The notes beneath the pieces are model-generated. The model saw nothing but the letters and a program-made list of their open reading frames with translations, did not search any database and was not told where the DNA came from. Positions 8,985 to 52,096 of a stretch of 64,000 bases of DNA are shown piece after piece; the stretch's first letter is position 1; each line of letters opens with the position of its first letter. Source of the stretch: a virus (Duplodnaviria; Heunggongvirae; Uroviricota; Caudoviricetes); the IMG/VR virus record IMGVR_UViG_2667527592_000002. One strand, given 5' to 3'. The translations under genes and the position numbers were made by a program.

Positions 8985-9009
8985 AAAAGCCGCTGAGAAG
9001 CGGCTTTTT
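8985..9009 (+). terminator. rho-independent terminator
   Basis: aaaagccgct-gaga-agcggctttt followed by T-run. Confidence 0.6.
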
Positions 9010-9071
9010 GGGTGTATAAATCCACTGCCATAGATTTATACGGTAGATAGATTTTTTCACGGAACTATCTG

Positions 9072-10034
9072 GTGAGTATTTTAAATTCAGTTTCAGTAAC
9101 TTTCAACACTTCTGAGTATAAAAACAACACTGAATACCACAAAAAAATCAAAGGTCATCAGTTGAGTTTTTTTGCTCGTCATAGCGGTCTTCTTTCCCCT
9201 TCACATAGCGCCATTATTGCCGAGTTCGCCAACCTGGCAGGGTCTACCGATGAATACATGATCCGTCGCTCATATGCTGATATGTCCGAGATTACAGGAC
9301 GCAGCATTTCTACTGTGCGCCGGGCATTTGCTGAAGCGACGAAGTGCGGAATGCTTGTTAAGCAACATCAGGTAGCGAATAACAATGCCCAGGTGTGTAA
9401 CGTATATCGGTTTACGACACAATTTCTCCACTTCATTCATGTAGCAATGGAGATAGGGGGTAAGCAGGGCATCAAATTTGCCAACGCCACAAAGCTGGTT
9501 AAGCAATTGATTTCAAAGGTACGTTATTTTTTTGAAACTGGGAACCCCCTGTTCAAATTGAACAAGTCCCCCCATGTTCAAAATGAACAGCCAATAGAAA
9601 ATAAGAGTCACTCTATAGCCAAAAGAAGAGAAAGATCATGCGCGGTTCAGCCAAAGGCTTCACTAGCAAATAGTTCTCAAGCGGATAATGGGTGGCTGGA
9701 TAAAAAACCAGTAATCAGGGAAGAACATACCAACCACTGCCTGGCGGCGGCAAAAGCGAGAGCTGCAAAGCGTCGTTCAGACGAGGGGCACGCAAAACGG
9801 CAGGCTCTGTATCGTACCGCTGAAAAGCTGGCAAAAAAATTTGCATGGATACGTAGTGCCGCTACCGCAGTGAATAAGCCTAAACAATCCAGCGCCCTGG
9901 ATTTCTCAATGGATTATTCTGGCTCCCAGGGGTGTGCAACCATTGGTGAAGCCTTTGACCTGATGAAACAGCGTGGCTATCGGTCTGAATTTGACCGTGA
10001 GGATTGGTCAATCCCTGCGGGATTTAGGGGATGA
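9072..10034 (+). CDS. HTH DNA-binding protein, possible lytic replication initiator (RepL-like; speculative)
   Basis: 320 aa; ...MSEITGRSISTVRRAFAEATKCGMLVK... HTH; two internal palindromes TGTTCAAATTGAACA / TGTTCAAAATGAACA at 9550..9589. Confidence 0.3.
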   Translation: MSILNSVSVTFNTSEYKNNTEYHKKIKGHQLSFFARHSGLLSPSHSAIIAEFANLAGSTDEYMIRRSYADMSEITGRSISTVRRAFAEATKCGMLVKQHQVANNNAQVCNVYRFTTQFLHFIHVAMEIGGKQGIKFANATKLVKQLISKVRYFFETGNPLFKLNKSPHVQNEQPIENKSHSIAKRRERSCAVQPKASLANSSQADNGWLDKKPVIREEHTNHCLAAAKARAAKRRSDEGHAKRQALYRTAEKLAKKFAWIRSAATAVNKPKQSSALDFSMDYSGSQGCATIGEAFDLMKQRGYRSEFDREDWSIPAGFRG

Positions 10035-10086
10035 CCTGTGTGTCTACAAAACATCCCAATGATCGGAAAATGCTCGCTCGATAATT

Positions 10087-10098
10087 TGTGTTAGAAAA
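10087..10098 (+). promoter_or_regulatory. TGTTAGAAAA-type recurrent motif
   Basis: tgtgttagaaaa; second partial copy tgtttctaaat about 10 nt downstream. Confidence 0.4.
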
Positions 10099-10447
10099 TT
10101 AATTTGCTGTTTCTAAATCGGAATGTATGATCTGCATCATCGACTGAAGTCATCCATTGCTGAAATTTTTAGTTGATCTTCCATGTTTTCAGGCTTATAT
10201 TCATGCCGTCGTAGCAAATTCTGCGACCGGGTTTGACAGCCTGAATACTTACGCGGACAACCGCACATTTCCGATATTGCGGTATTTTTGTGTCCGTAAA
10301 ACCACGTTACGCCCGAATTATGGTGGGGCGTGATGGGGAGGCTTCGGCCTGCTGGTTTCGTAAGTGCCAGTCTGTCAACCCTGTCACGTCCTGCCACCTG
10401 TTTGACAGCGGGTCGCAGGTTGTTTATCAACTTACGAGGCCGTAACT

Positions 10448-10672
10448 ATGGTTAATGCCAATCCTTGCTCACGTCCAGAATTCATCTGGCGTTTCCACTC
10501 CCTGCAAAAACACTGCGATCACTTCGCAATTGCCGCAACCGAAAAAGAAGCCCGTTCTCTGATCCCTGATCAGTATGGTGTTCTTACTGGTCGTTTCTCT
10601 ACTTCCCCACAACCAAACACTAATCCCTGGTATCGCAATATTACCAATCCCGGAATTGCGGAGGCACACTGA
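10448..10672 (+). CDS. Icd-like small protein (cell-division inhibitor family; copy 1)
   Basis: 74 aa, ...EFIWRFHSLQKH...AIAATEKEAR...; paralogue at 50569..50784; precedes Ant-like gene with ATGA overlap. Confidence 0.45.
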   Translation: MVNANPCSRPEFIWRFHSLQKHCDHFAIAATEKEARSLIPDQYGVLTGRFSTSPQPNTNPWYRNITNPGIAEAH

Positions 10673-11379
10673 TGGAAATCTGCATTCTTGAAAAGCCATC
10701 AATGACCAGCATTGAGATCGCGGAGCTGGTGGGAAGTCGCCCGGATAACGTTAAACGCACTATTGAACGCTTGAGTAAATCAGGTGTTATTCCACTTCCT
10801 CCAATGGAGGTTTCCGAAAATATCAATAACTTAGGATTTAAAGTTAAAAATTCACACTACGTCTTCGAAGGCGAGCAAGGCAAGCGTGACAGTATCATTG
10901 TCGTTGCGCAGCTTTCTCCCGAATTCACCGCCCGGCTGGTGGACCGCTGGCGCGAACTGGAAGAACAAGTACGCCAGCCGTTGACCGAAATAGAGATGAT
11001 CGCCGCAATGGCTGCAAATGCAGTTCAGCAGCAAAAGCGGCTTCATGTTGTTGAGTCAAAGGTTAGCCAGGTGGTAGAAACCGTCGAGCAAATCAAGAAG
11101 GGCAACATGCCGGAAGGTTACATTGGCTACCGCCAGCTGGCGGCGAAATGCGGCCTGACCGAAGCCAAATGCCGCAACCTTGTCAACGCTTACCGGATTC
11201 CCACCGATACGCATGAGTTTTTAACTCCAGAGGGGGTATTGTCGCGTCGTTCCATCGTCGCCTTATCTCCCTTCATGAATGCTTTTAACCGGATGATGTC
11301 GGAGGCTGAACACCGAGGAAAACGTTGGTATCACCCAAAAATGGGGCAATTCCAGGTGATCGGTTGGGGAGGTGAGTGA
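10672..11379 (+). CDS. Rha/Ant-family antirepressor (copy 1)
   Basis: N-terminal MTSIEIAELVGSRPDNVKRTIERL (phage Rha-type motif); paralogue of 50784..51725. Confidence 0.7.
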   Translation: MEICILEKPSMTSIEIAELVGSRPDNVKRTIERLSKSGVIPLPPMEVSENINNLGFKVKNSHYVFEGEQGKRDSIIVVAQLSPEFTARLVDRWRELEEQVRQPLTEIEMIAAMAANAVQQQKRLHVVESKVSQVVETVEQIKKGNMPEGYIGYRQLAAKCGLTEAKCRNLVNAYRIPTDTHEFLTPEGVLSRRSIVALSPFMNAFNRMMSEAEHRGKRWYHPKMGQFQVIGWGGE

Positions 11380-11576
11380 TGGACATCATGCAGGCGGTAA
11401 AAAAAATCAGGGAAGGACAGGCTGAAGTGTGCCGCCGTAAAGCATGGAGTGTTGGTGTATGGGCCTGGCCTGATAATTACTCTACTACCGGATGGTTTTG
11501 TATTAATGGACTCCAGATCCGGGAAGTTGATTTATCGACGGCTGATATAGTCGGTAATGATTGGATGGTGACTTGA
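11376..11576 (+). CDS. small DUF2829 (Tad2-type)-like protein
   Basis: 66 aa, ...KKIREGQAEVCRRKAW...DLSTADIVGNDWMVT; matches C-terminal extension of Ant copy 2. Confidence 0.4.
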   Translation: MMDIMQAVKKIREGQAEVCRRKAWSVGVWAWPDNYSTTGWFCINGLQIREVDLSTADIVGNDWMVT

Positions 11577-11584
11577 AGCGTGAT

Positions 11585-11609
11585 GCCCCGGCCTGGCCGG
11601 GGCTTTTTT
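11585..11609. terminator. bidirectional hairpin terminator
   Basis: gccccggcctggccggggc + TTTTTT between convergent genes. Confidence 0.6.
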
Positions 11610-12094
11610 CATGCCTCATTAGTTGAGGTTGCTGCGTCTCCGACTGGTAACAGCGCGGTATTGCGTGGTTCGCCAGCAGGCCAGCGATAGCCAGACACTC
11701 TTGATGTTGGGAATGCGCGAATATTAACCGCATCCCCCTGGTTCCCACCCAAGACAAGCAGATCGCCATTGGCGCGGCGTCCGACAACGAAGCCTACGTG
11801 CCCACCGCCTACGCGGGTAAATACAACGATACATCCGTATGCCGGTGTATCTAATTTCTCGCCCCAATCCAGATAGGATTTTGCCGACTCAAATCTTGTT
11901 GAGCGGATGCCTACACGTTCCAGCATTGCACCGACAAATGCTGCGCACCACGGCGTTTCATCGTCTTTAATTCCGCCGCGCTTGATGTCGCGCCAGAACT
12001 GAACGATTTCAGGGTTGTGTTTAGCGCCTTTTATTTCAGTCAGGCCAATGTGCTTACGGGCTTCAATTAGCCAGCGAGGTTCAATGTTTGCCAT
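11609..12094 (-). CDS. CHAP / NlpC-P60-like cell-wall peptidase
   Basis: ...TPWCAAFVGAML... Cys nucleophile context and ...GGGHVGFVVG... His motif; 161 aa. Confidence 0.55.
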   Translation of the reverse strand: MANIEPRWLIEARKHIGLTEIKGAKHNPEIVQFWRDIKRGGIKDDETPWCAAFVGAMLERVGIRSTRFESAKSYLDWGEKLDTPAYGCIVVFTRVGGGHVGFVVGRRANGDLLVLGGNQGDAVNIRAFPTSRVSGYRWPAGEPRNTALLPVGDAATSTNEA

Positions 12095-12244
12095 ATTTTT
12101 CTCCCGGTCATGGGTTAATAAGTAGGCAAACTATGGGGAGTATGTGATTTTGACGGTAGTATCGTCCCCCTGAAAATAACATTCTCCATACCCTCTCAAC
12201 CGTACCGCATAGCGGAATTTTTACGGTTTAGAGGGGGAAATCCT

Positions 12245-15200
12245 TTGGACAAACTACTTCATTCAATCAGTGAAGCCTCCAGCTTAGGCGAACTGATTGA
12301 AATTGTTAGTCGGTTGCATAAATTACGTGCTGTTGCGACCTTTGGCGTCAGGAAAGCCGATGGCGTCAGTATTCAGAAAACACGCCGGGCAGCAAACAAC
12401 GCCGCAGTAAATCTTCTTAATTCCCTTCCGCCCGGCTTCGATGGGGCGAAATTAACTGACGAACAACGTCAGATTCTTGCCGGGTATACCGGTGAAGGTG
12501 GCCTGACAGATGGTGAGGGCAGCCAATACGAATACTACACGCCACAGTTTATGGCTGAAGGTATATGGGATCTGTTTGCTGACTACGGTATTGATGGTGG
12601 GCACGTACTGGAACCATCAGCGGGCACAGGTATTTTCCAGGAGACAAAACGGCAGGGCATGATAATGACCAGCGCCGAACTGTCTCCGATTTCCGGTCGA
12701 ATAAACCAGCTTTTGCACCCGGAAGACGATGTGAATATCGGGGCGTTTGAGGCGCTGGCGGCGAAAGACGCAATGTATGACCACGCTGTTGGTAACGTAC
12801 CGTTTGGTGAAGGGCGTTCCGGCGTTGCCGGGCTTGATCCGGCATATGCAAACGAGAAGAACGTTGGCAATTACTTTGTGTTGCGCACGATCGACAAGGT
12901 TAAGCCTGGTGGACTAATTGTATTGGTGGTGCCGAATGGCATGACCGATGGTACGAAATACAAAAAATTGCGCGATAAAGTCAGCCGTAAAGCGGAATTT
13001 TTGGGCGCACATCGTATGCCTTCTGGTACGTTCAGCGAATCCGGTACAGATACCGTGGTGGACGTATGGGTATTGCGTAAACACCCGGAAACCTTCCTGG
13101 AGATGATCCCCGACACGGATGATGCAACGCTCAAATCGGCAAACGTCCTTTGGGATACCTTCCTCAAAGGGAAATGGTTTACAACCGAAGGGAAGCGATT
13201 TGTTTACGGCGACATGGAACGCACCAGCTTCCGCAATACCCTGGTGGTGAAAAAGGATGGTCGTGTATCCAATGAGTCGATGAAAACCGCGCTATCTCGT
13301 CGCTTTGATAGTCGCATCAATTGGGATTTGCTCGGCGTAACTACTCAGGCATGGCAGGGCGCGAAAGTGGGCGATAAACGCCTTGTAGGCGGTATCTGGC
13401 ATGAGTTTGATGGCCTGAAATGGGTTAAGGACACGACAACCAAATCCTCCGCGCTTGATGTAAGTCGATATGGTGTTTCGACGTTTGGCGATCTGCAGAT
13501 CGCGTTCCAGTCAACAAACGGGATTCTGGCTTTGTCATGGGACCAGATATCGGCGATCGCGTCCGACTATCCATCGGTTGTCAGTGATGAAGTGGCAGCA
13601 ATGATTCGCTTTGCTGGCAAGCAGCGAGAAAAAGACAGGGAGCGCGTTATGCGCGGTGCGCTGATAGGTCAGTTGATCAACAAGGCACTTGATTTGCGTA
13701 ACCTGGGTGTGAACGTTGATGACAAACTGGCAGATGCATCCCGCCTGGCGGCAGCAGAAGTTGCGAAGTATGGACCACCGCACGCGATTAAGCTGAATGG
13801 GCTTGCTGAAGCTGGCGCTAAAAACTGGATGACGTTCACTGGCAATGTGAAACAGGATGGTTCCACTTCTGACCTTCTGGCAGGGCGACTTGATGTAACG
13901 GATGGTGCTGCCGGTATTGACTTTACCCGTCCTGAACAAGTGATAGCACATCTTTTCAGTGATGTAGCCCTTAATCCTATAACGCTGGGAGACTTTCGTG
14001 AGGCGTTTGCTGGTGAACTGCCAGAGGACGACGACGCGGCCCTTGAATTCCTGGCGAAATTTGATGATATCGCTATTGATGGGTATGGCTGCCTGCTGCC
14101 GATGGACCGCGCCACCAGCGGCGATATTGCAACCAAAACAGCATTGCTGGTGGGCTGGCGTGATGCGTCAATAGGTGAGCAGAAAGCGAACTTTGAGCGT
14201 CAGTTGGCGAAAATCGAAGAGAAACGCATTTTCACGCCACTAAATAAAGTCACCGTTAATCTGAACGCCCGCTGGCTGGATCGCCGCTTGATAAAAGAGT
14301 TCCTGGCAGAGCAGGGCTATGACGAGTTTAAGTACACTGAACCTGATCTGAAGGTCGTCGATGGCATTCTGGTATCTCCGGACGATTACGAAGGTAAGGA
14401 CGGGGTATTTACCGGCTATCAGCTACGAACCGTAAACGGCAAAAACGGGAATGAGTTCAAGAAGGCCAACAATAAAGACGGCTTCCTGAACCAGTTAGAA
14501 AACTACCTGAACGGCGTCAAACCGCGCGGGCAGAACGCTAACGAGTACCTGGATAAGATTGCTCAACTTGAAGTTAGCTTTAACGACTGGTTACGCACTC
14601 ACCCGCAGGCTGATCAGATAGCCCGTGACTATAACGACGCATTCAATGGTTTCATTCCGTTCACGCATTCTGACGCACCGCTTGGCCTGGAAGGGCTTAG
14701 TGGAAAGCGCATTCCTCTTACTTATCAGAATGAAGAAGTTCGGCGCTTGTCAGAAGATGGGCGCGGCATCATGGGATTTGGTACCGGGCTGGGTAAAACC
14801 ACGACCGCGCTTGCGCTTGAGGCGTATAACTTCGAAACAGGTCGCACTAAACGCACGTGTATTGTTGTTCCGAAGGCGGTTTATCAGAACTGGTATCACG
14901 AGGCACAGAGTTTCTACAGTGCTGATGCCTTCGCCAATATGATGTTTATCGGTTTGGATGAAGTTCGTGATGACAGCGGAAATATTCTGACCGCGCCGGT
15001 GCTTGATGAAAATGGCGAACCACGCCTCGACAGTAACGGGCAGCCTCTTACCAGAAATGTTGTGAAAGAGTCCGCCAGCGCCGTTATCGTTCAGCGCATG
15101 AACATGATCCCGTCGTCAAATTGGCGAACGGTCATCATGACAAAAGAACAATTCGCGTCTATCCCGCTACGAGAAAAAACCATCGAGGAGAACTCACAGC

Positions 15201-18200
15201 AAGCTGTCTTTAATGCTGTGGAAATGGGGCGTCTTGACCTGGCGTCCGGTAAACACCGTGATGCGCAGAAGAAGAACAAGATTAAGGATCAGGCCGCGAA
15301 TACCGGTACAACGAAGAAGCAGAATATCCCGTACTTTGAGGATATGAACTTCGATAGCGTGATTGCCGACGAGGGGCATAACTACCGCAACTCCTTTAAT
15401 GCCGGGCGTGAAGCGGGACAACTGGCATATTTGCCTAATCCGGCAGTATCCAAGATGGCCCGCGACATGGCTGTAAAAGCTGCGTACATGATGAAACGCA
15501 ACAACGGGCGTGGTGTAGTCATGCTGACGGCAACTCCGCTGGTGAACAGTCCGATTGATGCCTTCAACATGCTGTCTACTGTCATTCCGCAGGAAGAGTG
15601 GATGCGCATGGGCATCATTACGCCTGATGATTTCGTTCGTGTGTTTGGCAAAACAGCCACAGTTCAGGTCCAGAAAATTTCCGGGGAAGTGGAAGAGAAG
15701 CAGGGGCTGGTGGGCTTCCAGAACCTTGACGGCCTGCGTGGTATTTTCCATCGTTGGACCACTCTGAAGACTGCTGCAGATGTCGGAGCGACGGTTAAAA
15801 TTCCCGACATCATTGAGAACACCTTGCAGATCCCGATGACAGGGGAGCAGGAGACTGCTTATGAAGAGCTTCGTAAGCGTGCTCAGGAGTTAAGTCGCAA
15901 TGATGAGCTGACAGTCGATGAAAACGGGCATATCACTAACGACAAACCAGATGATTTCATCTTCTCCATCATCCGTGACATGGACAAGGTTGCTATAGAC
16001 CCGGATCTGTATGCCAGTGCGATTACATTCCAGTTCCCCGTTGAGCTTGCAGACCAGGTAAAAGCTATTGCTGATGCCTTGCCAAAAGTAGCTGGCGGTA
16101 AAGTGGCAGATGATGTTGATGAGGCCGAGGAAGACGGCGCTGGCGGGCTGGTCAGTACGCGTACCAGCAAGGTAGTGAAGACCGCTTTTAGTGAACATCC
16201 GACGCATGTTGAAATACGTGCCAGCATTGAACTGGAAGCTGAAATACTGAAGGCCATTGCGGCTGCCGGTATTGATATGCAGCAGGTATCGCACCCCATC
16301 CCGCCGAAGTATGCCGCGCTGATCGAAAATCTTCGTGAAGGTCTGAAGAACGGTAAGCAGATCGTCTTTATTGATGAAAAAGCCCAGCACCAGAAGCTGC
16401 GCCGTATTATCGCCAGTGCACTGCAAATGCCGGAGCAGGAGATTGGCATTATCAATGCGACGACAGTTAGCCAGGCTGGCGGCATCAAGCTGAAGAAGGT
16501 GAATAAGCCGACCGAACCTACTCCAAACAAAAACGGTGAATACAAAGAAGGGGCATGGGAAACCTACTACAGCAAACTTGCACAATATGAGGATTATCTC
16601 TCAGCTAAAAATGATGCTGGCCTTGAGGGCATGGAAGGTATTGCCGCCGACTATAACGAAGGTCGCACGCGCATCATAATCTGTAACAAGAAGGCTGAAG
16701 TAGGTATTAACCTGCACATCGGGACAACCGATATCCATCACCTGACACTACCCTGGACACCAGCCAGTATCGACCAACGAAATGGGCGCGGTGCGCGCGT
16801 AGGTTCACCGCAAGAAAAGGTCAATGTTCACTACTATTGTGGCAAAGGCACATTCGATGACTTCCGTCTGGATACGCTGAAACGTAAGAAAGACTGGATC
16901 AAGATGGTGATGACATCCGACATGTCAGAGATCGCCAATGGTGATGCAGATGATGCTGATGAACGCGCCATTATGCTGGCGGCAAACCCGGAAGAACGCC
17001 GCGCAATCATGGCTCGCCAGGCGCAAGAGCGTGAAGAACGTCTGAAACTGAAAGCACAGCGCGAGGCCAACAATGCTCTCGATATCTACCTGAAAGCGGC
17101 AAACGCCGCCGGAAAAGATATCGGCATGATGGAGACAGAACTGAAAAGCGCGATGGAACAGATAGAGTATTACCAGCGCAATCTTGACGACCTGATAAAA
17201 GCGGGTACGAACAGGAATGGGCAAAAATACGCGCTTGAGCAGTTGAGTAGCTACAGAAAACGTGCGCGGGTGCTGCGGTTTGCGATCACCATGGCAAAAG
17301 ACGCGGATACCATAATGAAACGCTCTCGTGGTGATGTGGAGCGCGCTATTAAGTCTGGTGTGCTGGATATCAGTATCGATGTTATTCAGAACCCACAGGA
17401 ATATATGCGCACTGACAAGAATATCCTGTTGCATAAAGGTAGTTATTACCGTGCAGTCATTGATGATCGCGAAACAACAGCGATTGTCCGGGTGGAAAAA
17501 ATTGACGGTGAAAAAGCACAATACATCTGCCGTATCGCCTGGCTGGATAGAGCAAGTCGTTACGCTCGATCACCGGGGTCAATCGTTACATTGCCGTTTG
17601 ACTCTGTGATTGAAGCGGTAACTTTTGAAGAGGGGGTTGCTGAATCACGCGCAACGGCTGCGCGTGGTGTTCAGTGCCACCAGCTATCAACAATACTTAC
17701 TCGCGATCAGTTCTATGATGCTATTCGCAATGGGGTAATGAATGTTATTGCTGGTAAACCTGGTAATGCATGGGGCGGTGGATCAGCTATTAAATACTGG
17801 GCCTATCGCACAGATGATGGGCAGATCGCGCTGTCATCGACCTATGATGGCGTGATAGGCCAACAAATCGGGCGAGCATCGGATATAGCACCTGAACGAT
17901 GGATATATCCTGATGGCAACGACGAGGCGCTGAAGCGTGAAGTGGCAAAAATACAAGCCAGTGATAACCCGCTGAATATCGTGGACGGAGAGGGATTCCT
18001 CCAGGCATTGTATGGGTATGATTACATCCAGGGAATGCAGGCATGGGGCGCACAAGCGACGATGGATGATGTTGCCCAGGAGTTCGAAAACTGGATGGCT
18101 GGGCGTGGTCTGTCAGGTCGTTCGCTTAATAAAGTCACTTCTGAAGATATTCTTAGCTTGTTCCGTAAACCGTCCGGAGAAGGTCTGGAATCATTCTGGA

Positions 18201-19081
18201 GGACCGTGCTGGCATACCGTTTATTCCAGGGCAGGATGAAAGCCTTTAGCAATATCGATGATATTGAACGGATGTTTAATCAGGTCAAGATCGCGAAAAT
18301 TAAGGCGAAGATCGAAAAAACACGTTCTGCGCTGGTGGCCTGGCGCGATGCATTGTTTGAGCAATATAAATCACTCAGTGATGCAGATGGATGGGCGGCG
18401 CTGGAACAGTTGGCGAATAATGGGGTAGATGGAGCGAAACTCGCCATTGTCCAGGCTGATAACCCCCTGGAATCACCGGCAGCACAGTGGATTAAGGTGG
18501 GGGCTGTCATCAATGCATTTGATGAAAAACACATTAGTAAGGACGATTTTGCTGATGCTGTTTCTGTTAATCGCCTGGTAGAAATGGCTACCCGCCGCGC
18601 CCGTGAGTTGAAAGATGGCGACTATGTGAATGAGTTGCCGGATACGCTCAAATCGGCAACGTGGCAGGACTATGTATCGCTGAAAAACGGCGGGGCCACT
18701 GAATCAGAAATCGCGGAAAGGCTTGAGCAGGCTGAAAGCAAAAGAGAAGAGCAGGCGGCAGTGGCTGAAGCCAGAGCTGATGAAGCGGCAAATGATGACT
18801 ATATCATTGTGGTTAATGATAAGCCGATTCGCGCTAAGGCGCGTGTTCGCGGGCGCTGGTGGAGCGTCAGCGAGGACGTTGGCGCGGTTTATCTCATTGC
18901 CGACCAACCAGGTTCCTCGACAATAAGGAACGCCAAAGACGCGATTAAGAAGATTGGCGGGCGTTTCTGGAATTTTGAAGTGAATCCGGTCGCGGATGTG
19001 GACTTTGACCGTCCGGCGTGGATGGTATCTACGCGTTACTCGGTAGATGAACTGCGTAAAATAATCGCCGATGCGGCCTAA
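12245..19081 (+). CDS. darB: DarB-like giant antirestriction protein: N6-adenine methyltransferase + DExH/SNF2-type helicase
   Basis: 2278 aa; MTase motif I VLEPSAGTGIF and motif IV-like GNVPFG; helicase motifs GFGTGLGKTTTAL, VIADEGHNYRN, LTATPLVNS, IDQRNGRGARVG; TTG start. Confidence 0.8.
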   Translation: MDKLLHSISEASSLGELIEIVSRLHKLRAVATFGVRKADGVSIQKTRRAANNAAVNLLNSLPPGFDGAKLTDEQRQILAGYTGEGGLTDGEGSQYEYYTPQFMAEGIWDLFADYGIDGGHVLEPSAGTGIFQETKRQGMIMTSAELSPISGRINQLLHPEDDVNIGAFEALAAKDAMYDHAVGNVPFGEGRSGVAGLDPAYANEKNVGNYFVLRTIDKVKPGGLIVLVVPNGMTDGTKYKKLRDKVSRKAEFLGAHRMPSGTFSESGTDTVVDVWVLRKHPETFLEMIPDTDDATLKSANVLWDTFLKGKWFTTEGKRFVYGDMERTSFRNTLVVKKDGRVSNESMKTALSRRFDSRINWDLLGVTTQAWQGAKVGDKRLVGGIWHEFDGLKWVKDTTTKSSALDVSRYGVSTFGDLQIAFQSTNGILALSWDQISAIASDYPSVVSDEVAAMIRFAGKQREKDRERVMRGALIGQLINKALDLRNLGVNVDDKLADASRLAAAEVAKYGPPHAIKLNGLAEAGAKNWMTFTGNVKQDGSTSDLLAGRLDVTDGAAGIDFTRPEQVIAHLFSDVALNPITLGDFREAFAGELPEDDDAALEFLAKFDDIAIDGYGCLLPMDRATSGDIATKTALLVGWRDASIGEQKANFERQLAKIEEKRIFTPLNKVTVNLNARWLDRRLIKEFLAEQGYDEFKYTEPDLKVVDGILVSPDDYEGKDGVFTGYQLRTVNGKNGNEFKKANNKDGFLNQLENYLNGVKPRGQNANEYLDKIAQLEVSFNDWLRTHPQADQIARDYNDAFNGFIPFTHSDAPLGLEGLSGKRIPLTYQNEEVRRLSEDGRGIMGFGTGLGKTTTALALEAYNFETGRTKRTCIVVPKAVYQNWYHEAQSFYSADAFANMMFIGLDEVRDDSGNILTAPVLDENGEPRLDSNGQPLTRNVVKESASAVIVQRMNMIPSSNWRTVIMTKEQFASIPLREKTIEENSQQAVFNAVEMGRLDLASGKHRDAQKKNKIKDQAANTGTTKKQNIPYFEDMNFDSVIADEGHNYRNSFNAGREAGQLAYLPNPAVSKMARDMAVKAAYMMKRNNGRGVVMLTATPLVNSPIDAFNMLSTVIPQEEWMRMGIITPDDFVRVFGKTATVQVQKISGEVEEKQGLVGFQNLDGLRGIFHRWTTLKTAADVGATVKIPDIIENTLQIPMTGEQETAYEELRKRAQELSRNDELTVDENGHITNDKPDDFIFSIIRDMDKVAIDPDLYASAITFQFPVELADQVKAIADALPKVAGGKVADDVDEAEEDGAGGLVSTRTSKVVKTAFSEHPTHVEIRASIELEAEILKAIAAAGIDMQQVSHPIPPKYAALIENLREGLKNGKQIVFIDEKAQHQKLRRIIASALQMPEQEIGIINATTVSQAGGIKLKKVNKPTEPTPNKNGEYKEGAWETYYSKLAQYEDYLSAKNDAGLEGMEGIAADYNEGRTRIIICNKKAEVGINLHIGTTDIHHLTLPWTPASIDQRNGRGARVGSPQEKVNVHYYCGKGTFDDFRLDTLKRKKDWIKMVMTSDMSEIANGDADDADERAIMLAANPEERRAIMARQAQEREERLKLKAQREANNALDIYLKAANAAGKDIGMMETELKSAMEQIEYYQRNLDDLIKAGTNRNGQKYALEQLSSYRKRARVLRFAITMAKDADTIMKRSRGDVERAIKSGVLDISIDVIQNPQEYMRTDKNILLHKGSYYRAVIDDRETTAIVRVEKIDGEKAQYICRIAWLDRASRYARSPGSIVTLPFDSVIEAVTFEEGVAESRATAARGVQCHQLSTILTRDQFYDAIRNGVMNVIAGKPGNAWGGGSAIKYWAYRTDDGQIALSSTYDGVIGQQIGRASDIAPERWIYPDGNDEALKREVAKIQASDNPLNIVDGEGFLQALYGYDYIQGMQAWGAQATMDDVAQEFENWMAGRGLSGRSLNKVTSEDILSLFRKPSGEGLESFWRTVLAYRLFQGRMKAFSNIDDIERMFNQVKIAKIKAKIEKTRSALVAWRDALFEQYKSLSDADGWAALEQLANNGVDGAKLAIVQADNPLESPAAQWIKVGAVINAFDEKHISKDDFADAVSVNRLVEMATRRARELKDGDYVNELPDTLKSATWQDYVSLKNGGATESEIAERLEQAESKREEQAAVAEARADEAANDDYIIVVNDKPIRAKARVRGRWWSVSEDVGAVYLIADQPGSSTIRNAKDAIKKIGGRFWNFEVNPVADVDFDRPAWMVSTRYSVDELRKIIADAA

Positions 19082-20460: not shown

Positions 20461-20661
20461 TTGCGTTTACTTAACGTGGCAGAACTTATCCCTGCAGGAA
20501 CTAATGCTATCGCTCGTCGTCGCTCATGGCAGCAGGCTCTATGTATTGAGATCTCGAAACGTATCAATGGAAGTTTTGAAGCTCGCAATATTGTTACTGG
20601 CGATAAGGTTCACATAACCCCGGAAAGTGCAAGCGCTGATGATTGGGAGTTTGTACATTGA
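20461..20661 (+). CDS. hypothetical protein
   Basis: 66 aa ORF. Confidence 0.25.
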   Translation: MRLLNVAELIPAGTNAIARRRSWQQALCIEISKRINGSFEARNIVTGDKVHITPESASADDWEFVH

Positions 20662-23513: not shown

Positions 23514-23589
23514 GATGGTGTAGCTCAGCGGTTAGAGCGGTTGACTGTTAATCAACGGGTCGATGGTTCAAATCCATCCACCATCGCCA
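23514..23589 (+). tRNA. tRNA-Asn (anticodon GTT)
   Basis: 76 nt cloverleaf folded by hand; acceptor GATGGTG/CACCATC, T-loop TTCAAAT, anticodon loop CTGTTAA, encoded CCA. Confidence 0.9.
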
Positions 23590-23591
23590 AT

Positions 23592-23667
23592 GCCGGTTTA
23601 GCTCAGTTGGTAGAGCGCCTGCCTTGTAAGCAGGATGTCAGCGGTTCGAGTCCGTTAACCGGCACCA
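23592..23667 (+). tRNA. tRNA-Thr (anticodon TGT)
   Basis: 76 nt; acceptor GCCGGTT/AACCGGC, D-arm GCTCAGTTGGTAGAGC, anticodon loop CTTGTAA, CCA. Confidence 0.9.
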
Positions 23668-25045: not shown

Positions 25046-25121
25046 GGCCCTTTAGCTCAGTGGTTAGAGCAGGCGACTCATAATCGCACGGTCACCGGTT
25101 CAAATCCGGTAGGGGCCACCA
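25046..25121 (+). tRNA. tRNA-Ile2-like (anticodon CAT, lysidine type) or tRNA-Met
   Basis: 76 nt; near-identical arms to E. coli ileX as recalled: GGCCCTTTAGCTCAGTGGTTAGAGCAGGCGACTCATAATCGC... Confidence 0.9.
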
Positions 25122-25575: not shown

Positions 25576-26151
25576 ATGTTAATGGCGAACGATAACGCAT
25601 ATGCAGAAGAAGATCTCATTTTGAGTGACTTCATAGGGAAGCGGGAACGCTGGACCCAAAAGCGAGAGGAACTTTACGCCTCATTAGTTCGCAAAGGCGT
25701 CAATATCGAAACCGCACAAAGCGGCGATATGACAGTGGTAAGCGTTGGATTGCACGGTGTAAGCGTGTCAGCAATCAATCATGAGCCATACGTTGCGTTA
25801 TCCGAGTCAATGGTAAGGTTAGTTAAGTTCCTGAAGTACACAGAAGCGAATAATGTAATCATTGGCAAAAAGAATATCCCTTTTTCCTCGGCTTTTTACT
25901 GGATGATGAAAGGGCTTGATGCCCGGCGGACATCATGGCCTAAAGGGAGCTATATATCGATGTTCCGTGGCAGCATTGGCAGCAAAGAAAAGCTCTTCGA
26001 ATTCTTGCCGGAAGAGGCATTCGATATTGTGGAAGGGTGCGATGTGATGGTGATGCCTCGCCTGGTAATGATGAATGGGGATTTACAGGCGCAGACAGAC
26101 TGGTTTGCAACTGGTGTGGATATTATCGCGACTGACTGGGAGGCTTTCTGA
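25576..26151 (+). CDS. hypothetical protein with DUF2829-like C-terminal region
   Basis: ...AFYWMMKGLDARRTSWPKGSYISM...QTDWFATGVDIIATDWEAF. Confidence 0.35.
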   Translation: MLMANDNAYAEEDLILSDFIGKRERWTQKREELYASLVRKGVNIETAQSGDMTVVSVGLHGVSVSAINHEPYVALSESMVRLVKFLKYTEANNVIIGKKNIPFSSAFYWMMKGLDARRTSWPKGSYISMFRGSIGSKEKLFEFLPEEAFDIVEGCDVMVMPRLVMMNGDLQAQTDWFATGVDIIATDWEAF

Positions 26152-32819: not shown

Positions 32820-33292
32820 AAACTTATTACCCATCTCTGAATTGTTACCCGTCTTCCTATCCAGAATTATCCGGGAAGCTGTTAGCTCTATTAGCTAAAG
32901 CACCTACGGAATGGTTTAAGCCAGTCGTTATCAATCCACACTTCCTGGATTACGGATCTGTTCGCACTCGTAACGAACTCAAAAACCTACTGGCGCATGG
33001 ATTCATTCGACACCGTGCCGGGAAAGGCTATCAGTTAGCGATTGCGCCAGAAGAGGCCATGCGGCTATTCGCATATCGTGACAGCCAGACAAAAGCTCGG
33101 GTAATAGCTCAAATACTTCATAACGGCAGCACCTATGCCCGCCAGTTTGGCGGCGACACGTCGCAGTTCTTGCGGGCGGTGCGATCGCTGGAGGAGCAAG
33201 GAGTTATTGAAAGTTCCTGTCTTCCTGTTCCTACCGTTCCACATATCAAACGTCGGGTTTACACCTTCACGCAGAGAGCTAAAAAACAATGA
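32816..33292 (+). CDS. hypothetical protein
   Basis: 158 aa ORF, overlapping stop/start. Confidence 0.3.
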   Translation: MKTYYPSLNCYPSSYPELSGKLLALLAKAPTEWFKPVVINPHFLDYGSVRTRNELKNLLAHGFIRHRAGKGYQLAIAPEEAMRLFAYRDSQTKARVIAQILHNGSTYARQFGGDTSQFLRAVRSLEEQGVIESSCLPVPTVPHIKRRVYTFTQRAKKQ

Positions 33293-33783
33293 TTTACGTA
33301 AAAGTGAAACGCCTACATCCGGCAGCAAAACTTCCAGCTTATGCCACCTCCGGATCGGCGGCGATGGATTTTGAGGCTGTTGAAATAACACCATGCGTCG
33401 ATAGCAATGGTGAAATTTCCTCAAGCTGGTGGGTGCATACCGGACTGGCTATGGAGATCCCGCCCGGCTGGTGTCTGAAACTCTATCCGCGATCCGGATT
33501 GGGCTGCAAAAAACATACTCGCCTGGCTAACTGCGTAGGAATTATCGACTCCGATTATCGCGGTGAAATCATGGCAAAACTGATTACTGATCCCGGCGGG
33601 GAAGGCGTTTGTCTCAAGCCTGGAATGGCTGTCATGCAAGGCATTTTTGAGCGTGTTGAACAAGTCTCACTAGTCGAGGTTGAGGAACTCAACGAAACGG
33701 AACGTGGTGCTGGTGGCTTTGGTAGCACATCGGAAGGCCACTTTGAAATTAAGCGTTCACCGCTTCAGTACGAAAAGTTATAA
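33289..33783 (+). CDS. dut: dUTPase
   Basis: motifs ...GIIDSDYRGE... and C-terminal ...RGAGGFGSTS... Confidence 0.85.
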   Translation: MIYVKVKRLHPAAKLPAYATSGSAAMDFEAVEITPCVDSNGEISSSWWVHTGLAMEIPPGWCLKLYPRSGLGCKKHTRLANCVGIIDSDYRGEIMAKLITDPGGEGVCLKPGMAVMQGIFERVEQVSLVEVEELNETERGAGGFGSTSEGHFEIKRSPLQYEKL

Positions 33784-33797
33784 GCAGAGAAAAGACT

Positions 33798-34475
33798 ATG
33801 AATAACATGACAACGAAAGAGCTTTTGACGGCACTTCCAAAATACAAAAGCCATAAAACAGTTCGTGCCTCAAAAATCAAAGATATCGAAATTATCGCCC
33901 TAATGGATGTGGTCCTTCTTTGCAACATCGAAGTCGTTGAGCCAGAAGGGGTAAAAGTCCATGTTGATAAAATGTTTTTGCAAAAACACCGACCAGAAAT
34001 TGGCGGATATCTGGTCGCTTATGAGGACGGATCTCTGTCCTATTCACCAGAAAAAACATTTGAAGAAGGCTTTAGTCGGACTAACGACTTCTTCGAAAAT
34101 GGGGCATTGCTCAGCATTGAAGGTCACAATGGGGTGACATTCATTACAGCCAGGGACGTAACTATTTCTGCTGGCGGTATCGCTACTCTACAAGAAGAAA
34201 TCGACCTTGAAGCAGCCGACTTTTCTGACGCGCTGATGTGGCTGAAGGATGGCAAGAAAGTTGCTCGACGCGGGTGGAACGGCGAAAACCAATTCTGCTG
34301 GCTGGTTCCTGAAGGACAGTACCCGGCACGAATGGAAGCCATTAAGGGATATTTCCCCGGCGACCTCGTTCCGTATGGTGCTTATTTCGCCTTAAAAAAT
34401 GCACAAGGTGTAGTTGTTCCGTGGGTTCCTTCTGTAGGCGACTTACTGGCATGTGACTGGTTTGTAGTGGAGTAA
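33798..34475 (+). CDS. two-domain protein with C-terminal DUF2829 (Tad2-type)-like domain
   Basis: ...DALMWLKDGKKVARRGWNGENQFCWLVPEG...VVPWVPSVGDLLACDWFVVE. Confidence 0.5.
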   Translation: MNNMTTKELLTALPKYKSHKTVRASKIKDIEIIALMDVVLLCNIEVVEPEGVKVHVDKMFLQKHRPEIGGYLVAYEDGSLSYSPEKTFEEGFSRTNDFFENGALLSIEGHNGVTFITARDVTISAGGIATLQEEIDLEAADFSDALMWLKDGKKVARRGWNGENQFCWLVPEGQYPARMEAIKGYFPGDLVPYGAYFALKNAQGVVVPWVPSVGDLLACDWFVVE

Positions 34476-49768: not shown

Positions 49769-50087
49769 TTTAAGTTGAATTGAAAATTTCTCCGATGTAC
49801 ATTCACTACCGATTGGCACACCGGTCAACTTTTTGAGACAAACTATTTAGTTTTTCGTATTATTGCCGCCGCCATACCTATGGCGGTGCAATATAGGTGG
49901 CTGAAAAGCCCCCGTTGACTCACGGTGTTCCAGCCTTTATTGCGCCGCCACCAGACCGTGGAACAGTCGATGGCGGCTCCGAAAGCAAGGAGTCACTACA
50001 CTATGAACAACTACAGTCTTTTCCCATCACTCGTCGTCCACCACTCACGCGATAATCTGCATTCTTTACTCGCGCTGGGGGTGTCAA

Positions 50088-50255
50088 AATGACTGTTCGC
50101 TACCTCAACTTTCAAATCAAGAACATTACTGGCGGTTGCTATGACTGGTTTGTCACTCTCGGAAAAGAAGTGATCACCGGGAAGCTGGATGAAGTGAAAG
50201 CTAAAGCAATGGCCTACGCCTGCAAGCAAGCCCGGAAAAAATCCGCCAAAGCATA
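50088..50255 (+). CDS. small hypothetical protein (55 aa; below ORF-track cutoff)
   Basis: hand translation MTVRYLNFQIKNITGGCYDWFVTLGKEVITGKLDEVKAKAMAYACKQARKKSAKA; RBS present. Confidence 0.3.
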
Positions 50256-50353
50256 AAATACTGACTGTTGCGCCCTGGCATTATCGTGGGGTATATTTCT
50301 ACGGCACCTTAGAAAAACGGGTGCCGGGATTGGAACCCCGGATAATGCAAAAG

Positions 50354-50376
50354 GCGACACAGACGCCGAAAGCGTC
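50354..50376 (+). terminator. rho-independent terminator
   Basis: gacgccgaaagcgtc + ttttttt. Confidence 0.6.
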
Positions 50377-50568
50377 TTTTTTTGTGTCATGCCATCGCAC
50401 AGCCATACGTAGCGTTTAGCTCAGAGATCAATGGTAGTGCTGGCTGGGCTGCCGAAAGGCAGGCCGGTTCCCTTTTGCGCCGGTAGTTCCAACCCAGTCA
50501 GTGCTACCGCCATTGAGATTGGAACCTCACGCGGTAGCTCCTTAAATTAGCAAAAGGAGGCTGCCAAT

Positions 50569-50784
50569 ATGGCTACTATCCCTACCCCAACTCATTCTGA
50601 ATTTATCTGGCGTTTCTATTCCTGCCAAAAACACCTGTATATCTGCGTAATGGCTGCTACCGAAGCAGAAGCTCGTTCATACCTTCCTGAAGAACCCTGC
50701 ATTTTTGCCGCACGCTTCACTCTTGATGCGATGGAGATCCTCAATTACTGGAATCTGCCGATGAACTGCGTGGAGGTGCACTGA
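50569..50784 (+). CDS. Icd-like small protein (copy 2)
   Basis: ...EFIWRFYSCQKH...VMAATEAEAR...; paralogue of 10448..10672. Confidence 0.45.
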   Translation: MATIPTPTHSEFIWRFYSCQKHLYICVMAATEAEARSYLPEEPCIFAARFTLDAMEILNYWNLPMNCVEVH

Positions 50785-51725
50785 TGAATCTGCCCATCTC
50801 TCGCAAAGCGACAATGACCAGTATTGAGATCGCGAAACTGGTGGGAAGTCGTCACTCTGATGTTAAACGCAGCATCGAAAGACTTGTTGCTAAAGGTGTT
50901 ATCCAACATACGCCATTGGCTACAGTTGAGAATAATCAATCACTTAGCCCTAATAAATACACAAAAGCCTATGTCTTCGAAGGCGAACAAGGCAAACGAG
51001 ACAGTATCATTGTCGTCGCACAGCTCTCTCCGGAATTCACCGCCCGGCTGGTGGACCGCTGGCGCGAACTGGAGAATGCCAGGGGACCGTTAAAATCAAA
51101 AGCCGAAATCCTGGCTGAAATGGCGCAAATGCATCTTGAGCATGAACGCCGGATCAACGCCGTAAATGCCCAGGTAGCCGAGGTATCAGCACAAGTATCG
51201 ATGGTTGCTGAAACACTCGAGCAAATAAAGAAAGGCAATATTCCGGAAGGCTACATTGGCTACCGCCAGCTGGCGGCGAAATGCGGCCTGACTGAAGCCA
51301 AATGCCGAAACCTGGTCAACGCTTACCGGATTCCCACCGATACGCATGAGTTTTTAACTCCAGATGGTTTGCTTGCGCGACGCTCCATTGTGGCCCTGGC
51401 CCCCTTCCGGAAAGCCTTTAAGCAGGTGATGTCGGAGGCAGAACCACGCAATAAACGCTGGTATCATCCAAAGATGGGGATGTTTCAGGCAATCCACCAT
51501 CCTGTGCCTGAAAGCCCAAAGGATAATCTGTCACTACATACCGCCAGAGAGAAGATCAGGACTGGATACGCAACAGTGTGTCGTCGTTCTTCCTGGCCTG
51601 AAGGTGTATGGGTATGGCCCGAAGGTGGATCACGAAAGCACTGGCGCACCATCCGGGACGGAAAAATCCATGCTATTGATTTAGCTCCAAAGGATGTTAT
51701 TGCTATGGACTGGATTGTTAGTTAA
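50784..51725 (+). CDS. Rha/Ant-family antirepressor (copy 2) with DUF2829-like C-terminal extension
   Basis: MTSIEIAKLVGSRHSDVKRSIERL; C-terminal ...KIRTGYATVCRRSSWPEGVWVWP...IHAIDLAPKDVIAMDWIVS aligns with standalone 11376..11576. Confidence 0.7.
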   Translation: MNLPISRKATMTSIEIAKLVGSRHSDVKRSIERLVAKGVIQHTPLATVENNQSLSPNKYTKAYVFEGEQGKRDSIIVVAQLSPEFTARLVDRWRELENARGPLKSKAEILAEMAQMHLEHERRINAVNAQVAEVSAQVSMVAETLEQIKKGNIPEGYIGYRQLAAKCGLTEAKCRNLVNAYRIPTDTHEFLTPDGLLARRSIVALAPFRKAFKQVMSEAEPRNKRWYHPKMGMFQAIHHPVPESPKDNLSLHTAREKIRTGYATVCRRSSWPEGVWVWPEGGSRKHWRTIRDGKIHAIDLAPKDVIAMDWIVS

Positions 51726-51784
51726 ATGCTGCATCCCCGGCGACTCCGGGGATTTAACTGCCAAATAATCGGATTATCCGCACG

Positions 51785-52096
51785 ATGAAAAAAATAGATT
51801 TCACTTATTCTGCCGCCACAATCCAGCGACGTTTCAGTCTCATAAGGGAAGTGGAACTATCAAAAAACTTGTATCAAATTCTACTGGATGAAGAGTTTTC
51901 ACTGATGGTTATAGCAGAAAAATTAGCTATGCCGAACGACCGGCACAAGGTCATAGCCAGCCTCGATCTGGTGACAAACAGATACTGGGAGAAAGAGGAA
52001 CTACATGAGGCGGGAGTAATTCGTGACCTGATGGAGAATTCCGTTCCCCGCCGCTATCGTGCAGGGAACGGCATCTCCGTGGTTAAAGGTGTTTAA
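51785..52096 (+). CDS. hypothetical protein
   Basis: 103 aa ORF. Confidence 0.3.
   Translation: MKKIDFTYSAATIQRRFSLIREVELSKNLYQILLDEEFSLMVIAEKLAMPNDRHKVIASLDLVTNRYWEKEELHEAGVIRDLMENSVPRRYRAGNGISVVKGV

Follow-up and report, generated by a model that had tools for sequence, protein, structure and literature searches.

A stripped-down Tad2-like domain, stand-alone and fused, in two immI-type modules of a D6-like phage-plasmid: a candidate anti-defence or switch protein

Among known phage proteins that counter host defence, Tad2 sponges are some of the most versatile. In Tad2 of phage SPO1 (gp34.65), W25, N26, W73 and D79 are the four main contacts to gcADPR, which S76 contacts as well; the protein is a homotetramer built from α2/β2 dimers and interlocking of α1, with a β2-β3 insert containing α2 as the dimer interface, one of two oligomer interfaces (10.1101/2023.05.01.538930). 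The immI operon of phage P1 (c4 - icd - ant1/ant2) is the closest described relative of the regulatory modules considered here, in which a c4 antisense ribonucleic acid (RNA) with a1/b1 targets precedes an icd gene and overlapping, translationally coupled downstream genes. Phage D6 is a plasmid prophage of the P1 family. We analysed a stretch of 64,000 nt from the IMG/VR virus record IMGVR_UViG_2667527592_000002 (the window). By sequence comparison it is a D6-like, P1-family phage-plasmid that carries two immI-type modules (c4 RNA, icd, "ant"). Both end in a small domain, a separate gene in module 1 and the C-terminus of Ant in module 2, which we consider very likely to be homologous to Tad2 (PF11195, DUF2829) and call the mini domain.

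The window shares 98.8% identity with Escherichia phage D6 over positions 9000-12300 and 92.5% over positions 49800-52000. The D6 annotation gives, for module 1, an Icd-like protein (orf19), an Ant "similar to HK97 Roi" (orf18) and a hypothetical protein of 65 amino acids (aa; orf17), and for module 2 an Icd-like protein (orf83) and Ant (orf82, 313 aa). The corresponding open reading frames (ORFs) lie in both modules where an earlier note, made from the letters of this DNA, had placed them:

10448..10672 (+): icd-like gene copy 1, 74 aa (NCBIfam NF033153, E 3e-10, above cut-off; phrog_1426; D6 orf19)
10672..11379 (+): Rha/Roi-family "Ant" copy 1, 235 aa, without the C-terminal domain (phrog_63, E 2e-47; HTH_24; D6 orf18)
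11379 (ATG, 65 aa) or 11376 (GTG, 66 aa)..11576 (+): stand-alone gene for the mini Tad2-like (divergent DUF2829) protein (phrog_7385; D6 orf17)
50569..50784 (+): icd-like gene copy 2, 71 aa (NCBIfam NF033153, E 3.3e-13; D6 orf83)
50784..51725 (+): Rha/Roi-family "Ant" copy 2, 313 aa, fused to the mini Tad2-like domain (phrog_63, E 2e-59; D6 orf82)
51528..51725 (+): fused mini Tad2-like domain, Ant2 residues 249-313, attached via the linker HHPVPESPKDN

The start at ATG 11379 is that of the D6 annotation, and GTG 11376 yields the 66 aa of the earlier note. That note had taken the two Icd-like/Ant-like pairs for paralogues, and the small ORF and the C-terminal extension of Ant copy 2 for a split and a fused state of the same domain; pairwise alignment of the two regions bears out both claims. 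In BLASTP comparisons, the two Ant proteins share 66% identity over 238 aa (E 8e-109) and the two Icd proteins 45% (E 2e-15). The small ORF matches residues 249-313 of Ant2 in a gapless alignment, with 26/65 identical positions (40%, E 5e-18), and Ant2 residues 252-312 match phrog_7385 (E 4e-15). In the DNA, a 17-nt indel at the junction distinguishes the split from the fused state. In the split copy, ant ends in GGGAGGTGAGTGATGG, a GGAGG ribosome-binding site with a TGATG stop/start overlap, and the same device, TGATG with GGAGG upstream, joins icd to ant in module 1. The ant paralogues are mosaic, with blocks of 90-95% nucleotide identity (10903-10962 and 11122-11241 of the window, compared with module 2) in a background of 30-65%, a pattern suggestive of recombination or gene conversion between the immI-type modules.

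The domain occurs at 35 loci in IMG/VR, 16 split and 19 fused, often with both states on one contig. The split loci show the gene order repL-icd-ant-mini-CHAP, and in the fused loci icd-ant::mini is usually followed by pmgF. No stop codon interrupts the mini domain at any of the 35 loci, and its ORF is intact throughout. This includes five of the 19 fused loci (L032-L036, on D6-like contigs) in which ant is frameshifted and the C-terminal Tad2-like domain is intact; gene callers report "transcriptional regulator" fragments of 81-98 aa there (P0004-P0008). A tblastn search added 122 PLSDB plasmids of ~90 kb with a match to the mini gene, ORF integrity being outside the scope of that search; their hosts are E. 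coli (104), Salmonella (16) and Shigella (2). In the PLSDB rows listed, the feature under the match is a "hypothetical protein", the label it also bears in D6. Purifying selection acts on the fused copy (pN/pS 0.14, 11 distinct alleles). The pN/pS of the stand-alone copy is 0.69, at a very low divergence that makes this value uninformative.

Direct homologue searches by sequence returned close relatives only. An exhaustive HMMER search over 1.8 billion representatives gave six matches, and the family is therefore narrow. With tblastn, D6 was the only GenBank phage found; a scan of genome contigs gave three short, spurious matches, and a scan of metagenome contigs gave D6-like loci and one short, probably spurious match. 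The D6 proteins and the motif are absent from the supplements of the 2025 sponge-diversity preprint. The searches yielded two distant relatives only, P0010, from a Raoultella plasmid contig (L046), and P0011 (L047), both on phage-plasmid-like contigs of ~90 kb. The earlier note had named the Pfam model of DUF2829 as a check, with a divided outcome. The ORF of the window scored 15.1 bits against PF11195 (E 0.035; gathering threshold 25) and the C-terminus of Ant2 did not match it; by Pfam's own rule, the mini domain is no DUF2829 member. Over the family as a whole, PF11195 is a recurrent, full-length, near-threshold match (P0010, E 6.2e-5 and 23.9 bits; P0001, E 0.012; P0011, E 0.076).

Because the direct searches were nearly empty and the Pfam score lay below the threshold, we used hhalign and a rank test. 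hhalign of the five-sequence mini-family against seven phage Tad2 proteins, including SPO1 gp34.65, gave P 0.0016 with a collinear alignment over 66 columns, at a probability of 16%; every other DUF2829 domain tried likewise gave weak, collinear matches. In the rank test, a hidden Markov model (HMM) built from the mini-family alone was run against all ORFs of 50 aa or more, 1475 in six frames, in 80 IMG/VR loci with true Tad2 genes. Tad2 ORFs took 10/10, 19/20 and 48/50 of the top ranks (Mann-Whitney p 3e-48; best E 5.9e-5). This direction, the mini-family HMM against a pool containing Tad2, is the informative one; an HMM of SPO1-proximal long Tad2 proteins scores the mini-family at ~6 bits only. 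The homology to bona fide PF11195 members thus found is statistically supported, full-length and collinear. It agrees with the resemblance to DUF2829/Tad2 proposed in the earlier note, with the small domain remaining under the Pfam cut-off. The elements of the PF11195 fold are also present, an N-terminal helix, an antiparallel beta-sheet and a short helix before the last strand. Tad2 structures are the best structural matches of the mini domain, and Foldseek was negative.

A resemblance of this kind could be fortuitous, the mini domain being an unrelated small beta-rich domain or a functionless, decaying remnant. The sub-threshold Pfam score, the negative Foldseek search and the hhalign probability would fit such an origin, as would the pN/pS of the stand-alone copy and the searches of PDB sequences by phmmer and hmmsearch, which gave no significant Tad2 match (SPO1 gp34.65 appeared at E 1.2, collinear at both ends). 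It is very improbable given the rank test and the collinear matches to every DUF2829 protein tried, the ORF that is intact in 35/35 IMG/VR loci and matched in 122 plasmids, and the low pN/pS of the fused copy.

From the N-terminus, the mini domain consists of a helix, a strand and loop with the motif V-C-R-R-x-x-W, short beta hairpins and a C-terminus of the form D-x-x-x-x-D-W-x-V. It has the Tad2 order α1, beta-sheet, α3, β5 and the hallmark motifs G-x-x-V-x-R-x-x-W and D-x-x-x-x-D-W-x-V, and it retains α1, the V-x-R-x-x-W strand and loop, β3-β4, α3 and the terminal D-W-x-V strand. As in the Tad2 family (SPO1 gp34.65, ModTad2, HgmTad2/AcrIIA7), the protein is phage-encoded, small, and found both alone and with an N-terminal fusion partner. 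It differs in its length (65 aa compared with 72-104 aa), in lacking the β2-β3 insert with α2, in a W-N-G loop that is one residue shorter and in its own invariant residues (C18, R19, G26, W28 and P31). It differs further in its sub-threshold Pfam score, its apparent c4 antisense control and the fusion of one copy to a Rha/Roi regulator. We therefore regard the mini domain as a stripped-down, divergent DUF2829/Tad2-like variant, a 65-residue form that standard annotation misses.

The contact residues of SPO1 Tad2 are conserved in part. W23 and D56, aligned to SPO1 W25 and D79, are invariant in the mini-family. N26 and W73, both invariant in the alignment of the seven phage Tad2 proteins, are not conserved (N26 is replaced by S, P or D and W73 by V, I, Y or F). 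S53 aligns to SPO1 S76 in the ORF of the window only, with Ala in Ant2 and P0011. If the mini domain binds a ligand, its specificity is probably other than that of SPO1 Tad2. Such a change is conceivable because Tad2 homologues bind many different signals (10.1101/2025.08.24.671296). About 30 of the 80 IMG/VR Tad2 genes have N-terminal extensions of more than 50 in-frame residues, and N-terminal fusions are therefore tolerated in this family.

Both "Ant" proteins are Rha/Roi-family regulators and not homologues of P1 Ant. Against P1 Ant1, Ant2 gave only E 0.01 over a 67-aa low-information stretch (BLASTP). With Phage_pRha (PF09669; cut-off 29.9 bits), copy 2 scored 32.3 bits and copy 1, 66% identical to it, 26.4 bits, just under the cut-off. 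Both copies resemble Roi of HK97, HK022 and 933W and Rha of P22 (Phage_pRha; phrog_63) in the N-terminal winged helix and the middle region. Those proteins lack the C-terminal Tad2-like domain: of the 550 phage records that have a Rha/Roi homologue of Ant2, D6 alone extends into it. We also considered whether phrog_63 Ant proteins generally carry the mini domain, and rejected this because of its restriction to D6 in these records; for the closest Rha/Roi relatives checked, Stx1_499 and Klebsiella ST16-OXA48phi5.3, there was no downstream mini gene.

The split and fused states recall a "Rosetta stone" relation, in which the mini domain would be a ligand sensor gating the Rha/Roi "Ant". On binding a nucleotide signal of the host, perhaps an immune messenger, it would turn the regulator on or off and so couple prophage induction to the state of the host. 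The ligand-binding fold with its partly retained pocket and the purifying selection on the fused copy fit this idea. It is improbable in view of three observations: P0010 and P0011 occur without any ant gene, D6 alone has the domain among the 550 Rha/Roi records and the regulator therefore works without it, and the five frameshifted ant genes are followed by an intact domain.

The regulatory elements around the genes are the following:

10173..10201 (+): candidate sigma-70-like promoter of module 1 (consensus scan 9/12, no better than shuffle expectation; positional only)
10195..10247 (+): a1/b1 target sites of the c4 antisense RNA, module 1 (Rfam RF03163, 55.9 bits, above gathering score)
10316..10401 (+): c4 antisense RNA gene of module 1 (69.6 bits with Rfam RF01695, against a gathering score of 45)
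11585..11610 (+): strong intrinsic terminator ending module 1, an 8-bp all-GC stem followed by TTTTTT, directly after the small ORF
50304..50382 (+): isrK-like leader RNA element, upstream of the module 2 c4 (62.5 bits with Rfam RF01394, against a gathering score of 50)
50427..50514 (+): c4 antisense RNA gene, module 2 (Rfam RF01695, 76.7 bits)
51735..51751 (+): GC-rich hairpin CCCCGG-CGACT-CCGGGG after module 2, read from the sequence as a possible weak terminator with a poor T tail

The terminator scan made no call for the hairpin after module 2 because of its poor T tail. In module 2, the isrK-like element stands where module 1 has its a1/b1 target element.

This arrangement matches P1 immI in the c4 RNA with upstream targets, as identified by Rfam, and in an icd-like first gene, which in both copies scores above the NF033153 cut-off and is coupled to the next gene. 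It differs from P1 in that the gene after icd is of the Rha/Roi type and not significantly like P1 Ant1, in that the operon is duplicated, and in that it ends in a Tad2-like domain, which P1 lacks. In module 1, repL lies directly upstream of the c4-icd-ant operon; in P1, kilA-repL lies downstream of ant.

The two distant relatives help to separate the mini domain from Ant. P0010 and P0011 are encoded by stand-alone genes with no ant nearby. At both loci (L046:4752-5291 and L047:4746-5207), the mini gene follows right after c4 and its a1/b1 targets, without icd or ant. The distance of 44-52 nt past c4 equals the c4-to-icd spacing in the window and places the mini gene at the icd start site in P1 and D6. 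L047 has a c4 almost identical in sequence to that of module 1 of the window. The c4 RNA and its targets are upstream of the mini domain in all three architectures. Because P0010 and P0011 follow c4 directly and without ant, the conserved partner of the mini domain is the c4-controlled operon and not Ant.

The same loci raise the question of whether the mini domain is itself an output of the immI switch. It would then serve as a small modulator or antirepressor through contacts to other proteins, for example a C1-type repressor or the Rha/Roi protein, with the Tad2 fold co-opted and no immune signal sequestered. In the two distant lineages it is the sole c4-controlled product, at the icd spacing, and in D6-like elements it is always co-translated with a regulator or fused to it 1:1. 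The D6 "Ant" is a Rha/Roi DNA-binding protein, which leaves room for another protein as the true antirepressor; half of the Tad2 ligand contacts are lost, and the element already has canonical Tad2 genes. We nevertheless consider this explanation, the main rival of our preferred reading, rather unlikely. All DUF2829 proteins with a demonstrated mechanism are, according to the papers, small-molecule sponges, the mini-family keeps the ligand-stacking Trp and the Asp without variation, the proposed protein-protein contacts are hypothetical, and c4-type RNAs also control cargo other than antirepressors. A bolder reading is that, in phage-plasmids of the D6 type and their relatives, the mini Tad2-like protein is the real effector of the c4-controlled immunity switch or a co-effector gated by a ligand, its fold recruited to read an immune messenger or another nucleotide and flip the decision between lysis and lysogeny; this we judge to be quite unlikely.

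Our preferred, still tentative reading, to which we assign a probability of roughly 45%, is that the mini domain is an immune-nucleotide sponge that is produced early and that c4 represses in the lysogen. The operon follows the immI order, with the candidate promoter, the a1/b1 targets and the c4 antisense RNA followed by icd, the Rha/Roi-type "ant" and, in last position, the mini domain. By analogy to P1 immI, c4 would block translation of icd and, through the coupled chain, also that of ant and the mini gene. In module 1, the TGATG overlaps with their GGAGG sites form the chain from icd via ant to the mini gene, and in module 2 the 17-nt difference fuses the mini domain to ant in frame. On the same analogy, the mini domain would be made only when c4 fails to stop icd translation, early after infection or once the plasmid prophage turns to lytic growth, and would be silent in the lysogen. 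Most likely it would then oligomerise and sequester a nucleotide-derived immune second messenger of the Thoeris, CBASS or Pycsar type, as Tad2 does, and this would protect the phage at the time when it becomes visible to host defences. The fusion to Ant is best explained as a tolerated by-product of translational coupling; N-terminal extensions are common in the Tad2 family.

This reading rests on the predicted timing by c4, the retained Trp and Asp residues of the pocket, the stand-alone occurrence and the tolerance of the family for N-terminal fusions. Sponges must accumulate early in infection, as argued for Tad2 (10.1101/2023.05.01.538930). Several points weigh against a sponge. The mini-family has replacements at N26 and W73, which make up half of the main ligand contacts in SPO1 Tad2, and the insert that forms the SPO1 dimer interface is absent, with α1 present. 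The exact icd-ant position of the mini gene in the distant relatives is just as compatible with a role in the switch itself. Two canonical PF11195 proteins are already encoded in the element, and a third or fourth sponge is therefore not obviously needed. With the value obtained at low divergence, selection on the stand-alone copy is undemonstrated, and ligand binding and an anti-defence role are predictions drawn from sequence.

The two canonical proteins and a further candidate lie elsewhere in the window:

33798-34475 (+): 225 aa, canonical C-terminal PF11195 domain (E 1.6e-22; phmmer E 1.2e-20 to ModTad2, 9eib)
25576-26151 (+): 191 aa (D6 orf6, "hypothetical"), C-terminal PF11195 domain above threshold (E 1.1e-9)
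20461-20661 (+): 66 aa (D6 orf11, "hypothetical"), third mini candidate (hhalign to the mini-family P 2.3e-4, probability 44%; no Pfam match)

The gene for the 225-aa protein follows directly after ORF 33289-33783. Its product, in which the N-terminal region is unassigned, differs at 6 of 225 positions (~97% identity) from a DUF2829 protein encoded by the P1-like phage vB_EcoM-Ro157c2YLVW. The 191-aa protein contains the motif ARRTSWPKG, which resembles CRRSSWPEG of the mini-family. The 66-aa ORF lies between a pmgM-like and a pmgR-like gene. Among the IMG/VR loci, L110 and L093 have DUF2829 domains in tandem, in which the N-terminal copy is short, lacks GWNGKG (PF11195 E 4e-4 and 0.02) and is somewhat similar to the D6 mini domain. 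Many of the loci L049-L128, and also IME10 (L041), have a recurrent N-terminal domain of ~70 aa fused to a canonical Tad2, without a Pfam match and with the motif YIGTK..A.PM.R.EYN..RGW..P.DEN..D.GYLVEY...SWSPK.VFE.AY. The N-terminus of the 225-aa protein of the window has the part GYLV.Y.DG..SYSPEK.FE of this motif.

Other genes near module 1 and the tRNA genes of the window are as follows:

11609-12094 (-): 161-aa CHAP-domain peptidoglycan hydrolase (phrog_1259, "baseplate hub subunit and tail lysozyme"), converging on the module 1 terminator
12245-19081 (+): 2278-aa homologue of P1 DarB (D6 orf15), directly downstream of module 1
23514-23664 and 25046-25118 (+): three tRNA genes (Rfam RF00005), the D6 tRNA cluster

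The novelty of the locus lies in a testable candidate for an anti-defence or switch function, a c4-controlled mini domain, and not in a new kind of system. The Tad2 family would gain a minimal form of 65 residues that standard annotation has missed, a new mode of regulation by c4 antisense RNA and translational coupling, and a new architecture in which a Rha/Roi regulator is fused to a Tad2-like domain. If the domain acts in the switch, immune signalling would be linked to prophage induction, and with the mini protein as an effector the plasmid prophage could escape when the abortive-infection signalling of its host fires. Phage-plasmids of the D6 type are frequent in E. coli and Salmonella, among them isolates from clinics and food, and with up to five DUF2829-type domains per 91-kb element they would make a good model for why a phage needs several sponges.

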